A stretch of 64,000 nt of DNA from the sequence record NZ_CP136150.1; one strand, written 5' to 3'. Within the stretch, counting starts at the first letter, position 1; each line of letters starts with the position of its first letter. The position numbers and the translations under genes are program-made. The notes beneath the pieces are model-generated. The model worked only from the letters and a program-made list of their open reading frames with translations, did not search any database and had not been told where the DNA came from. The DNA comes from a plasmid. Of this stretch, positions 43,067-47,967 are shown one piece after another.

Positions 43067-43679
43067 CACATAAGTCAGTGAAAATAAATCAGGCTTATTC
43101 AACGTTGCGAAGGTTCTTTGGCCAGTTGCTGGAGCTACTTCCCGAAATCAGGAAAGCCTGCGGCTGAAAGTACATCAGCAACAGCACTGGCTCTGGGATG
43201 GCCACGTTCAAGCCAGACCAGACTGAGAGCCACACCTGATTTCTCCGTATCATAACTGTGACGCGACAACCGGAATTACCAAACGGACACTCAAAGAATG
43301 AGATGAACGCTCCAGACTTATGAAGTTCGGAACACACAGAGTTCCTAGTTGTAGCGGCTCGCAATCGAAATCCCCCCGACTCGCAATCAGCGCAAATTTC
43401 GGCTCACATTAACTGCAAATGAAAAATGCCACCGGCTCACATTAAGTGACAATGGGCTCGCATTTATCCTGCCCGGCTCGCAATCCATTCCACCGGGCTC
43501 ACAATAACTGCAAGTCAACTTCGTCATATCGGCAAACCGACTGCCAGCATTCTATTTTCCAGTTCGACTGGTCTCAGATATTTATTCATACTGGTTAAAA
43601 ATTGTCGTTTTGGTTTGATTAACGTTTACCTACGTATAATCGCAGCAATTGGAGTTAACTCAGTAAATAGGAGCAAATA

Positions 43680-44420
43680 ATGGAACAAAACCAACCAGCA
43701 CAACCTTCACGACGTGCAATCCTGAAACAAACTCTTGCAGTATCTGCTTTGTCTGTCACCGGGCTGGCGGCCTTATCGGTACCAACTATCTCTTTCGCCG
43801 CATCACTGAGCAAAGAGGAACGTGACGGTATGACTCCAGATGCAGTCATTGAACATTTTAAACAGGGTAACCTGCGCTTCCGGGAAAATCGCCCGGCTAA
43901 ACATGATTACCTGGCACAGAAGCGCAACAGTATTGCGGGTCAGTATCCTGCTGCGGTGATCCTTAGCTGCATTGACTCACGTGCGCCGGCGGAAATTGTG
44001 CTGGATGCGGGGATCGGTGAGACGTTTAATTCCCGCGTAGCGGGTAATATCAGTAATCGCGATATGCTGGGCAGCATGGAGTTTGCCTGTGCAGTTGCCG
44101 GCGCGAAAGTAGTGCTGGTTATAGGACACACCCGCTGTGGCGCAGTACGCTGTGCTATTGATAATGCTGAACTGGGTAACCTGACGGGGCTGCTGGATGA
44201 AATTAAACCCGCGATTGCAAAAACGGAGTATAGCGGTGAGCGTAAAGGTAGCAATTATGATTTTGTCGATGCGGTGGCACGAAAAAATGTCGAGCTGACT
44301 ATCGAAAACATCCGCAAAAACAGCCCGGTGCTGAAACAACTGGAAGATGAGAAGAAAATTAAAATCGTTGGCAGTATGTATCACCTTACTGGCGGTAAGG
44401 TTGAGTTTTTCGAAGTATAA
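43680..44420 (+). CDS. Beta-class carbonic anhydrase with a Tat signal peptide
   Basis: RRAILK twin-arginine motif; zinc ligands in CIDSR and HTRCG motifs. Confidence 0.85.
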   Translation: MEQNQPAQPSRRAILKQTLAVSALSVTGLAALSVPTISFAASLSKEERDGMTPDAVIEHFKQGNLRFRENRPAKHDYLAQKRNSIAGQYPAAVILSCIDSRAPAEIVLDAGIGETFNSRVAGNISNRDMLGSMEFACAVAGAKVVLVIGHTRCGAVRCAIDNAELGNLTGLLDEIKPAIAKTEYSGERKGSNYDFVDAVARKNVELTIENIRKNSPVLKQLEDEKKIKIVGSMYHLTGGKVEFFEV

Positions 44421-44627
44421 CTGAAGCAGTCCGAGTCCGAATACAGTCAGCCTCGCATTACATTAAGAGCTCATTAAATTTTCTCTGGAATGAAAATGTA
44501 TTTTTTGAGTACACCCAAAGCGCACAGTCTGGTGAGACAGTTTTTCTGTCTCATTTGGGTTGTTTTTATCCCATTCCGGTGTTACGTTTTCATCATCTAG
44601 AGTTAAACGAGACAGTTTTCACCATTA

Positions 44628-45187: not shown

Positions 45188-46835
45188 CGCGATTCCGTCT
45201 GACTCCCTGTTGCAACTACGGCAACGGCTCGATCGCCTGCCGCCAAAAAGCCCTGAACGTGCCAATCAGATTGCCGCTACCGCCCAGCTGTATGGTATTT
45301 CAGTCACGACGGTTTATCGCGCTCTTCACCTTGTTTTGAAACCGCGAACGGCCCACCGCAGTGATCATGGTCAACCCCGGATACTGCCACCGTCCGAGCT
45401 GGAGCATTACTGCGAACTGATTGCTGCACTGAAATTACGAACCACAAATAAATCCGGCCGCCATCTGTCGACCGGACGGGCAATACAGCTGCTGGAAGAG
45501 CATGGCGTGGAGACGGTCCAGGGATTGATTAAAAGTCCCAAAGGCTTACTTCGTAAGCAGACCGTCAATCGCTGGCTTTCCCGCTGGCGTCTCGACCAGC
45601 CCCGCCTGTTACGGGAGCCTCCGGCGGTAAGATTTCAGGCTGAAAACAGCAATGACTGTTGGCAGTTTGATATGTCGCCATCCGATCTCAAACATATTGA
45701 GCGGCCTGACTGGGTAGATCCTGCCCGGGGCGAACCCACGCTGATGCTCTTCAGCGTAGTGGATGACCGGAGCGGTGTCGCATACCAGGAATACCGGTGT
45801 GTGTACGGTGAGGATGCGGAATCTGCGCTGCGTTTTCTCTTTAACGCCATGGCCCCAAAAACCAGGTCTGATTTTCCTTTTCAGGGCCGCCCGAAATTGC
45901 TGTACCTCGATAATGGACCGGTGGCCAAAAACCATGTATTCCAGAATGTGATGCAGTCCCTGAAGGTTGACTGGCTGACGCATACGCCGGCAGGCAAGGA
46001 CGGCCCCCGGACGACGGCACGGTCCAAAGGTAAAGTTGAACGTCCTTTCCGGACCGTCAAGGAGGCACATGAAACTCTGTACCATTTCCATAAACCGGAA
46101 ACGGAGCTGCAGGCCAACGAATGGCTCTGGAACTATCTGAGCCGTTATAACGCGCAGCGTCACCGCAGCGAGAAACACTCCCGACTGGAGGACTGGCTGG
46201 CAAATATCGGCCAGGAAGGTGTGAGGGATATGTGCAGCTGGGAACAATACTGTCGGTTCGCCCGGGAGCCGGAATCCCGCAAGGTGGGTGTTGATGCGCG
46301 GATAACGATAGACGGCACCGCATGGGAAGTTGAACCGGATATGGCGGGTGAAACCGTCATTCTGCTGTGGGGGCTGTTTGACGAAGAGATGTATGTGGAG
46401 TTTACCGGTGAAACATGGGGGCCTTATTATCCGGTGTCGGGGCCTGTGCCGCTGCACCGTTACCGGACGTTCAGACGCGGTAAAGCGGCTGAACGGGCCG
46501 ATCGTATCCATGCTCTGGCCAGGCAGCTGAACATCCCCATCAGCGCATTGTCCGGCAGCGATCTCCGCGTGGTCAGTGATGACACTCAGCAGCGCATTGA
46601 TGCGTTGCCACATCAGCCCTTTGATACCCGAAAATTTGAATACCACTTTCCCACCGTTATTGCGGCAAAACTGGCAATTGCCGACGATCTGGCCATACCG
46701 CTGGCCAGAATGTCGGATGAAGACCGGGCGTTTATCGACAGTATTCTGACTGAGACGCTTAACCGTAGTGAAGTACTTGCCCGCATCAGAGACTATTTTC
46801 GTAGCAGACAATCAGGAGAGGACCATGCGGGTTGA
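45171..46835 (+). CDS. TniA/TnsB/MuA-family DDE transposase
   Basis: DDE triad contexts CWQFDMS, LLYLDNGPV, GKVERPF; start overlaps the resolvase stop. Confidence 0.75.
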   Translation: MSSRRSAIPSDSLLQLRQRLDRLPPKSPERANQIAATAQLYGISVTTVYRALHLVLKPRTAHRSDHGQPRILPPSELEHYCELIAALKLRTTNKSGRHLSTGRAIQLLEEHGVETVQGLIKSPKGLLRKQTVNRWLSRWRLDQPRLLREPPAVRFQAENSNDCWQFDMSPSDLKHIERPDWVDPARGEPTLMLFSVVDDRSGVAYQEYRCVYGEDAESALRFLFNAMAPKTRSDFPFQGRPKLLYLDNGPVAKNHVFQNVMQSLKVDWLTHTPAGKDGPRTTARSKGKVERPFRTVKEAHETLYHFHKPETELQANEWLWNYLSRYNAQRHRSEKHSRLEDWLANIGQEGVRDMCSWEQYCRFAREPESRKVGVDARITIDGTAWEVEPDMAGETVILLWGLFDEEMYVEFTGETWGPYYPVSGPVPLHRYRTFRRGKAAERADRIHALARQLNIPISALSGSDLRVVSDDTQQRIDALPHQPFDTRKFEYHFPTVIAAKLAIADDLAIPLARMSDEDRAFIDSILTETLNRSEVLARIRDYFRSRQSGEDHAG

Positions 46836-47793
46836 AGTGATGGAGCATTATGGACTGACGCAGTCTATTGAACAGGCCGGGTATTATGAAACTGCCCACC
46901 ATAAGCAGCTGATGAAAGACATTAAGGGTGCGATACGCGAAGGACGACTGATAGCGGTCTGTGGCGTGGTGGGAAGCGGTAAAACCGTCACTCTGCGACG
47001 CCTGCAGCAGCAACTGCTGGATGAAAATAAAATCATTGTCGCCCGCTCCCTGTCGGTGGACAAACAGAGTGTCCGGCTCGCCACGCTGATTAATGCCCTG
47101 TTTTATGACCTGGCACAGGATAAACAGGTGCAGATCCACAAACAAGGTGAACGCCGCGAGCGTGAGCTGCAGGAACTGGTCAAAAAAGGCAAACGCCCGG
47201 TGGCGCTGTTTGTTGATGAAGCCCATGACCTGAACGGTAATACACTAACGGGGCTCAAACGGCTGATGGAAGTGGTTGAAGACGGCGGTGGTAGGCTGTC
47301 CGTCGTTCTGGCCGGTCACCCAAAACTGCGTAATGACCTGCGTCGTCCGACGATGGAGGAAATTGGCTATCGTACCGATATTTTTACACTGGACGGGATC
47401 ACCGGCAGTCAGCGTGAATATATCCAGTGGCTGCTGAAGACCAGCACCGGTAAGGGTAAGCCGGAAGATATTCTAACGACCGAAGCCGTTGACCTGCTGG
47501 CGATGAAACTGCGAACACCGCTGCAGGTCCAGTTGCACCTGACGCTGGCGATGGAAGCAGGATACCAGACGGGCGAAAAACCGATTACTGCCACTCTGGT
47601 TGAATCCGTGCTGTCACGTCAGCTGGATGACCTGGAGCCGACGCTCACGCGACATGGTTACCGGCTGAAGGATATGGTGGAGCAGTTCGATGCAAAACCA
47701 GCTGAAATCAGGGCATTATTTAATAATCAGTTAGACCCTGCCCGCACGGCCGAACTACGCGACAGAATGCTGGCGGTCGGTCTGCCAATATGA
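46825..47793 (+). CDS. TniB/TnsC-like AAA+ transposition ATPase
   Basis: Walker A GVVGSGKT and Walker B LFVDEAHDL; start overlaps the tniA end. Confidence 0.75.
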   Translation: MRVEVMEHYGLTQSIEQAGYYETAHHKQLMKDIKGAIREGRLIAVCGVVGSGKTVTLRRLQQQLLDENKIIVARSLSVDKQSVRLATLINALFYDLAQDKQVQIHKQGERRERELQELVKKGKRPVALFVDEAHDLNGNTLTGLKRLMEVVEDGGGRLSVVLAGHPKLRNDLRRPTMEEIGYRTDIFTLDGITGSQREYIQWLLKTSTGKGKPEDILTTEAVDLLAMKLRTPLQVQLHLTLAMEAGYQTGEKPITATLVESVLSRQLDDLEPTLTRHGYRLKDMVEQFDAKPAEIRALFNNQLDPARTAELRDRMLAVGLPI

Positions 47794-47967
47794 CGATGTT
47801 GATTTGCAGTTATTGTGAGCCCGGTGGAATGGATTGCGAGCCGGGCAGGATAAATGCGAGCCCATTATCACCTAATGTGAGCCGGTGGCGTTTTTCATTT
47901 GCAGTTAATGTGAGCCAAAATTGGCGCTGATTGCGAGTCGGGGGGATTTCGATTGCGAGCCGCTACA

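Follow-up and report, generated by a model that had tools for sequence, protein, structure and literature searches.

The mig-5 transposon of a Salmonella spv plasmid and its place among DDE transposons

Tn552, the β-lactamase transposon of Staphylococcus aureus, encodes the p480 transposase, the p271 ATPase and the BinL resolvase, carries two transposase sites in each of its long terminal repeats and makes 6-7-bp duplications. Mu-like phages are not known to use a resolvase. Here we describe the mig-5 transposon, a 4,618-bp element at 43350-47967 of a 64,000-nucleotide stretch (the window) of plasmid record NZ_CP136150.1, which is a Salmonella spv virulence plasmid with spvR at 49627-50520. 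It is very probably an intact unit transposon of a widespread and apparently unnamed family, in which an IS481-like transposase (TnpA) works with an AAA+ ATPase (TnpB) and with a resolvase and its res region (TnpR/res).

Elements of the Tn5053/Tn402 family (TniA-TniB-TniQ-TniR) need TniQ, make 5-bp duplications and hunt for res sites (PMC11406308). In the IS481 family (IS481, ISRe46/TnRErm46), a hexanucleotide duplication NCTAGN is followed by an inverted repeat starting TGT (PMC6794481). The mig-5 transposon conforms to this NCTAGN/TGT pattern, a copy within ypeB reading ACTAGG/TGTAGC..., and IS481 is the best curated match of its transposase. IS481 differs in having a single transposase of about 284 positions and short inverted repeats, with no ATPase and no resolvase, whereas the mig-5 transposon has a target relaxed to NNTANN, three overlapping genes and ends of about 168 bp with seven sites each. 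With Tn5053/Tn402 it shares the design of a presumably replicative unit transposon, with DDE transposase, AAA+ ATPase, serine resolvase and TGT ends, but TniQ, the 5-bp duplication and res hunting are all absent from it.

Mu, BcepMu and other Mu-like phages resemble the element in the distant, significant similarity of both transposition proteins, in multi-site ends of about 170 bp and in an AAA+ B protein encoded directly after the transposase. The mig-5 transposon differs from them in having no phage genes, a 6-bp rather than a 5-bp duplication, and a resolvase. The TnsB-TnsC pair of Tn7 and CRISPR-associated transposons (CAST) and the IstA-IstB pair of IS21 provide the closest solved folds, the same pairing of a transposase with an AAA+ protein, and ends with several sites; TnsA, TniQ and CRISPR parts are absent here, and IS21 has neither resolvase nor cargo. 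The likeness to Tn552 that is seen here is one of architecture (DDE transposase, ATP-binding partner, serine resolvase with res, cargo, no TniQ), and the two differ in gene order, in the number of sites and in the strict TA-centred target of the present element. In a tblastn search of PLSDB plasmids at E≤1e-3, the ten organisms that head the list, ahead of 64 further genera, do not include Staphylococcus. The mig-5 transposon is of a known kind (DDE transposase, AAA+ ATPase and resolvase), while forming a distinct and widespread lineage with IS481-like targeting.

Anatomy of the element

A preliminary description, made from the letters of the DNA, had proposed a discrete transposon in which long multi-site inverted repeats enclose the genes of a resolvase, of a DDE transposase and of its AAA+ helper, with a Tat-exported β-carbonic anhydrase as the only passenger. 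All of this is borne out by alignment of the ends, which gives seven sites per end, by profile matches for the three transposition genes, and by the twin-arginine motif of the sole cargo gene. The features of the element are as follows.

43350..43518, plus strand: left terminal inverted repeat (IR-L), starting TGTAGCGGCTCGCAAT, with seven GCTCRCAWT-type sites in the same orientation at about 43357, 43380, 43402, 43435, 43456, 43476 and 43497
43519..43566, plus strand: inner extension of the inverted repeat, an inverted copy of DNA encoding the ATPase C-terminus at the right end
43554..44493, plus strand: cargo module (divergent promoter region, mig-5 and 3' region), at both borders of which homology to relatives with other cargo stops
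43680..44420, plus strand: mig-5 (PSLT046), β-carbonic anhydrase of 246 aa with twin-arginine signal PSRRAILK ... SFA/AS
44497..44526: 30-bp dyad, consensus TGTATTnTTTnGGTA/TACCCAAAnGAnACA, proposed res site I with the crossover
44533..44553: palindrome TGAGACAGTTTTTCTGTCTCA, that is TGAGACAG-TTTTT-CTGTCTCA, upstream of tnpR
44609-44615: third GAGACAG half-site, just upstream of tnpR
44627..45187, plus strand: tnpR (rlgA, PSLT045), serine resolvase of 186 aa (Resolvase 9e-38, plus HTH_7)
45171..46835, plus strand: tnpA (PSLT044), DDE transposase of 554 aa with D167, D247 and E290
46825..47793, plus strand: tnpB (PSLT043), AAA_22/ExeA-type ATPase of 322 aa with Walker A GVVGSGKT and Walker B LFVDE
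47800..47967, minus strand: right terminal inverted repeat (IR-R), with seven sites as in IR-L, ending ...GCCGCTACA at 47967

The arms at 43345-43566 and 47751-47972 form an inverted repeat of 222 nt with 92% identity, whose terminal part of about 168 nt is the one conserved in the family and is 96% identical between the two ends. Both ends start with TGTAGCGGCTCGCAAT, exactly at 43350 and 47967, and the opening letters of the transposon ends read TGTARCGGCTYGC... The 64-kb window contains 13 copies of the motif GCTCRCAWT; the expected number is 2.7, and none of 100 shuffles gave more than 7. Twelve of the 13 copies lie within the two ends, six in each and in a single orientation, and a copy with one mismatch, GACTCGCAAT, brings the count to seven sites per end. 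The sites are of two kinds, GGCTCGCAAT and the longer GCTCACATTAACTGCAAATGA, and the seven-site architecture is kept in an alignment of 14 ends from seven elements. These sites are presumed to be those to which TnpA binds.

The inner extension is common to the left ends of the window and of locus L001, and is not found in the left ends of L008, L012, L017 and L069. It was also observed that, in the lineage with the carbonic anhydrase, the left arm at 43519-43566 is an inverted copy of roughly the last 50 bp of the right-arm interior (47751-47799), which suggests that the left end of this lineage once derived from a right end.

The end of tnpR overlaps the start of tnpA by 17 nt, and the end of tnpA overlaps the start of tnpB by 11 nt, so that a single tnpR-tnpA-tnpB operon is suggested. 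In TnpA, an IS481-like N-terminal region of about 330 aa (HTH and rve) is followed by a β-barrel and a helical C-terminal region. The residues D167, D247 and E290 are invariant in 18 family sequences, 14 of which match Pfam rve. Against the NCBIfam IS481 model NF033577, TnpA scores 76.8 bits (E 2e-21, model positions 12-272 of 284), far under the family cut-off of 224 bits, which makes it a relative of IS481 and not a member by threshold; about 220 C-terminal residues lie beyond the 284-position model. Among phage protein families, the best match of TnpA is PHROG 310 'transposase' (1e-31) and that of TnpB is PHROG 296 'DNA transposition protein' (8e-20), while the best Pfam match of TnpB is AAA_22 (7e-17). 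In a sequence search of the PDB, only marginal integrase/IstA matches were obtained for TnpA, and nothing meaningful for TnpB.

An alignment-based AlphaFold model of TnpA reached a pLDDT of 75.6, against 39 for a single-sequence run. The closest folds to this model are ShCAST TnsB (4e-16), IstA (3e-14), Tn7 TnsB (2e-10) and MuA (4e-9), at 14-18% sequence identity in the structural alignments. As modelled, TnpA fits an RNase-H-fold DDE transposase with the D,D,E triad; its sequence and its choice of target resemble those of IS481, and its predicted fold is TnsB/IstA/MuA-like.

The dyad, the palindrome and the third half-site span about 130 bp upstream of tnpR, a region that is as large as a classical res, lies where one would be expected and is conserved throughout the family, cargo-less members included. 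A res-like palindrome had been pointed out in the preliminary description, and one is indeed present at 44533-44553, nearly invariant in the family, again with cargo-less members included. The adjacent dyad is, however, the better candidate for the crossover site, because the breakpoints of cargo and of mosaic elements (44494-44502) coincide with its left edge. The palindrome, which also scores as a terminator-like hairpin, is likely to be an accessory res subsite or an operator of tnpR.

Two relatives are mosaics. The elements of Xenorhabdus (L007) and Kosakonia (L008) have a Pantoea-type left arm (93%) joined to a Salmonella-type right arm (93-95%); the mosaic break falls at the proposed res dyad, and the cargo travels with the left arm. 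Between the window and the relatives L002, L007 and L008, homology breaks off at 43518-43553 and sets in again at 44494-44502, and these borders indicate that the passenger fills one slot, from the innermost end site to the region upstream of tnpR.

The following route can be proposed. TnpA would bind the seven sites of each end of about 168 bp and pair the ends, cut at the TGT.../...ACA termini, and join them to target DNA with 6-bp staggered cuts centred on TA (NNTANN, often NCTAGN). By analogy with Mu, Tn7 and IS21, TnpB would bring in the target DNA or license it. The process is presumably replicative, giving a cointegrate that TnpR would resolve at res just upstream of tnpR. The single slot between IR-L and res holds the passenger, here mig-5, which is induced by Salmonella inside host cells and whose product is a Tat-exported enzyme of the periplasm.

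Relatives, copies at other sites and rival readings

Homologues of TnpA number 3,302 at E≤1e-5, many of them 70-81% identical proteins of gamma-, beta- and alphaproteobacteria. Relatives of the transposon are present on 913 PLSDB plasmids, some of them cyanobacterial, and in several copies per genome in some hosts. We fetched 80 genomic loci and located the ends, which gave 53 ends and 16 complete elements with both flanks readable. All 53 ends start with TGTA(A/G)CGGCT(C/T)GC or a close variant, and TA stands at positions -4/-3 in 52 of them (NNTANN/TGTA); C is over-represented at -5, as is G at -2. Perfect 6-bp duplications bracket seven of the 16 complete elements (GCTAAG, GATATG, TATAAG, CATAGT, GGTAGG, TCTAGT and AATAAC), all of them NNTANN, for which the chance is about 1/256 each; the ACTAGG duplication of the copy in ypeB brings the total to eight.

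Elements bracketed by complete inverted repeats and duplications measure 3.5-6.8 kb, the cargo-less ones 3.5-3.7 kb. The order tnpR-tnpA-tnpB is kept in every complete element compared, from Enterobacterales, betaproteobacteria and methanotroph assemblies; a relative on a cyanobacterial plasmid is annotated with transposase and ATPase only. The cargo varies. Relatives hold, either in this slot or next to their right end, a PAP2 phosphatase, toxin-antitoxin modules with PIN and Gp49/HigB-type toxins, an alginate lyase (Xenorhabdus, L007:3420-4595), an ETX/MTX2-type pore-forming toxin (Kosakonia, L008:6378-7262) and, in Izhakiella, an omptin outer-membrane protease (L012:10640-11680) and, separately, a ketoacyl synthase together with a gene resembling those of carrier proteins. 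The lyase, the pore-forming toxin and the omptin are each the only cargo gene of their element. As cargo, genes for secretion or for interaction with a host appear to be preferred in the family.

Several hundred Salmonella plasmids match the mig-5 transposon at 99% identity or more. The preliminary description had suggested looking for the same element with different flanks, and such copies were found in ypeB, in an Enterobacter chromosome and on a Pantoea plasmid. The first was reached through an exact look-up of the Mig-5 protein. It lies in the 4.76-Mb chromosome CP088134.1, is 4,618 bp long with 10 differences (99.8% identity) and splits the ypeB gene; ACTAGG stands on either side of it, followed inwards by TGTAGC..., with no IS630 nearby. 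This near-identical copy with its clean 6-bp duplication indicates that the mig-5 transposon has moved recently. The ligA-ypeB region of CP088134.1 is 82.5% identical to that of E. coli, so that the host is another enterobacterium, presumably Salmonella. A 99% copy lies in the chromosome of Enterobacter hormaechei (L006), where its right end abuts a truncated Rpn-family gene, and an 80% copy with the same carbonic anhydrase lies on a Pantoea agglomerans plasmid, with its left end inside umuC and without the 3' part of umuC on the other side. Neither of the latter two has matching flanks.

Some further observations concern these relatives. In the same E. hormaechei locus, a solitary 42-bp transposon end (L006:17052-17093), flanked by GTTAGT, is present 6 kb downstream from the complete copy and may have been left by a rearrangement or by another insertion. 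An Rpn/Transposase_31 (YhgA-like) gene at 38543-39484 of the window is 84% identical to the gene truncated in the Enterobacter chromosome; an inversion, considered from the similarity of the Enterobacter right flank to 38453-38775 of the window, was rejected, as this similarity reflects only the paralogous Rpn/Transposase_31 gene. Short fragments similar to TnpA are present in 87 PLSDB records of Yersinia plasmids (Y. enterocolitica, Y. pseudotuberculosis and Y. pestis). Among the matches listed they cover residues 336-523 or thereabouts at 46-67% identity (for example NZ_CP045160.1, 50264-50496), and they have the look of what is left of an old, related transposase gene.

The kinship of the element has to be weighed against described families. 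The preliminary description called it a TniA/TniB transposon and compared its ends with those of the Mu/Tn7/Tn552 type; the comparison holds for how the element works, and the family name does not. Membership of Tn5053/Tn402 is suggested by the common layout of DDE transposase, AAA+ ATPase, serine resolvase and TGT termini, but there is neither a TniQ nor room for one, given that the plus-strand open reading frames (ORFs) of at least 90 aa within the element are only those of the carbonic anhydrase, tnpR, tnpA and tnpB, and no further ORF beyond these four is conserved in the relatives. Moreover, Pfam TniB (PF05621) goes unmatched even at E≤10, the duplications are 6-bp NNTANN rather than 5 bp, and the ends are of about 168 bp with seven sites. 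This membership is already refuted, and we consider it very improbable. An origin as the transposition module left behind by a Mu-like prophage is scarcely credible. The PHROG families named above are among the strongest matches with a named function, and tblastn finds similarity on BcepMu and several Mu-like Pseudomonas phages, but identity to the phage proteins is only 24-28% (24-27% between TnpA and transposase A of BcepMu and several Mu-like Pseudomonas phages, about 27% between TnpB and a transposase B of a Mu-like phage), and complete inverted repeats and duplications bracket 3.5-6.8 kb without phage genes, with a 6-bp duplication in place of the 5 bp of Mu and with a resolvase. Just as little can be said for a plain IS481-family insertion sequence beside unrelated genes, which is how the NCBI labels ('IS481 family transposase', 'ExeA family protein' and 'recombinase') would read and which agrees with the sequence match and the style of target. 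The inverted repeats and 6-bp duplications enclose all four genes, tnpR, tnpA and tnpB overlap and keep the same order in every complete element compared, and TnpA has its additional C-terminal residues.

That the element is an ancient, fixed and immobile remnant, domesticated for mig-5 (and for the small RNA IesR-1, discussed below), is improbable as well, even though the Salmonella spv plasmid matches listed look single-site and the copy in the window has no duplication and both flanks rearranged. An ancient fixed insertion with degenerate ends had been raised in the preliminary description as the outcome that would speak against mobility. The three transposition genes are instead of full length, the ends are intact with seven sites at each, and copies exist at other sites, among them the 10-difference copy in ypeB with its ACTAGG duplication and the 99% copy in the Enterobacter chromosome. 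The insertion in the plasmid is old, yet the element is not dead. Several points do weigh against the intact unit transposon that we favour. The TnpA of the window matches Pfam rve at only E=0.04, and the target-capture role expected of TnpB is assigned by analogy. Nine of the 16 complete elements have no matching flanks, which recombination between copies would explain; no direct repeat flanks the plasmid copy at 43350/47967; and the Salmonella spv plasmid matches listed are consistent with one shared site. No name for the transposon was found in the annotations and literature searched, a search outside which ISfinder and TnCentral lie. The anatomy, the TA-centred 6-bp duplications, the copies at several sites, the changing cargo and the mosaic arms are seen directly in the sequences; from these are drawn the proposals on transposition, cointegrates and resolvase activity, on which protein binds which site, on TnpB and on the exact point of crossover.

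Four pSLT genes that have been annotated separately (mig-5, rlgA, PSLT044 and PSLT043) thus become one mobile unit, which explains how a PhoP-regulated carbonic anhydrase arrived on spv plasmids and why it is present in Enterobacter and Pantoea. The family, on more than 900 sequenced plasmids, is labelled by current pipelines as an IS481 transposase with unrelated neighbours, so that its cargo, including omptin and pore-forming-toxin genes, is not recognised as mobile. It also represents a natural intermediate between the single-protein IS481 type and the heteromeric Mu/Tn7 type, which bears on how AAA+ regulators are recruited. We are evenly divided on a wider reading, in which the mig-5 transposon would be the first recognised member of an undescribed, widespread replicative family that joins an IS481-type transposase to an acquired Mu/Tn7-style AAA+ partner and a resolvase, inserts at strict TA-centred hexamers, swaps single host-interaction genes at res, and was the source of mig-5 and of the promoter and 5' half of IesR-1.

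The mig-5 cargo and the IesR-1 transcript

The carbonic anhydrase and its Tat export are already known under the names mig-5 and PSLT046. The gene is macrophage-induced and regulated by PhoP-PhoQ (PMC3815029), and Mig-5 is among the listed Salmonella Tat substrates, with a knockout phenotype in membrane potential and ampicillin survival (PMC8262268); it has also been predicted as a Tat substrate elsewhere (PMC3027627). Its export rests on these two reports, the protein sequence itself offering the signal motif, with RR at residues 11-12 within PSRRAILK, then a hydrophobic stretch and an AxA-like SFA/A site. A study of 2016 noted the β-carbonic anhydrase and an 'integrase' on pSLT and took the whole plasmid as the mobile element, with no transposon delimited (PMC4793742). 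The transposon context of mig-5 appears not to have been described before in the sources searched.

Mig-5 matches Pro_CA at 1e-37 and NCBIfam NF011765 at 1e-141. A catalytically dead enzyme would have spoken against the preliminary description; all five catalytic residues are kept, namely the zinc ligands C97, H150 and C153 and the Asp-Arg dyad D99/R101, and they align with those of the M. tuberculosis Rv3588c structure 1YM3. By its residues, Mig-5 is thus predicted to be an active β-carbonic anhydrase. The published mig-5 mRNA of 960 nt would end near the palindrome at 44533-44553 if transcription starts close to 43600.

A second known product of this region is IesR-1, a 597-nt antisense virulence small RNA (sRNA) in the 654-bp spacer between PSLT047 and mig-5 (PMC3815029). 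The published primers and probe were mapped onto the window and place it as follows.

43035..43631, minus strand: IesR-1

The arm of the PLtetO fusion reaches to 43631 and the 'long' construct to 43031; the array probe covers 43510-43579. IesR-1 starts at 43631, inside the transposon, and its nucleotides 1-282 are transposon DNA that includes all of IR-L. Beyond IR-L it runs through 53 bp of orphan DNA and a DUF6685 remnant to a palindromic terminator. The virulence sRNA is therefore transcribed outwards from the end of a transposon and continues into what is left of a pseudogene. The arms of the knockout construct map at 43382-43421 and 43632-43671, which means that the 5' deletion in that study took out 43422-43631 and, with it, the greater part of the transposon's left end.

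Flanks of the plasmid copy

The surroundings of the plasmid copy comprise the following features.

41164-42279: KfrA/TlpA-type coiled-coil gene, left of the transposon
42537-43025: PSLT047 ORF, left of the transposon
43102..43349, minus strand: DUF6685 3' remnant and orphan DNA, outside the transposon, in which homology ends at 43296
47968..49119, minus strand: IS630-family element, outside the transposon, adjoining its terminal CA, with an intact transposase of 345 aa

The hexamers next to the ends are CCTAGT on the left and AATAGC on the right; each fits NNTANN, yet the two differ. The lack of a 5-bp duplication, remarked on in the preliminary description, is confirmed, and is accounted for by the fact that the family makes 6-bp duplications and the plasmid copy has none. 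It has none because both flanks have been rearranged, by the IS630 on the right, and by a truncated gene and 53 bp of orphan DNA on the left. The ends of the IS630 element, as defined from an E. coli copy (L086), are TA, AATAGCTTCGC...GCGAAGCTATT, TA in a CTAG target. In the window the expected left TA duplicate is missing and the IS630 touches the last base of the transposon, so that the right flank of the plasmid copy is an IS630 terminal repeat. On the left, an intact DUF6685 gene is carried by a KPC plasmid of Klebsiella oxytoca (L004), and its homology with the window ends at 43296; the 53 bp between this point and the left end of the transposon have no match anywhere searched.

An empty site, in which the left flank would be joined to the DNA beyond the IS630, was not found by megablast or blastn against PLSDB. 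Plasmids of Klebsiella, Yersinia and Buttiauxella were considered as sources of the ancestral junction and rejected, as their homology stops 53 bp to the left of the transposon and about 10 bp beyond the insertion sequence on the right. From its sequence, the insertion region appears to be a patchwork. Among the matches listed (Enteritidis, Pullorum and other Salmonella spv plasmids, with sizes from 49.5 to about 94 kb), the spacing between the element and its flanks agrees. The insertion therefore appears to be an old one with rearranged flanks. The plasmid copy is ancestral to the sampled spv plasmids, and its duplication was lost by the later rearrangement of both flanks.

The letters TAGT follow the right end of the IS630 and also precede the left end of the transposon. 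The IS630 may have split an original CCTAGT duplication at its CTAG; this needs a loss of 4 bp, and the chance of a coincidental match is estimated at 5-10%. Farther to the left, inverted repeats of 28 bp (93%) at 42500-42527 and 43031-43068 bracket the PSLT047 ORF. The right one belongs to a perfect 17+17 palindrome, a 32-39-bp piece of which is present, among the matches listed, at 97-100% identity in many plasmids of E. coli, Klebsiella, Shigella and Proteus.

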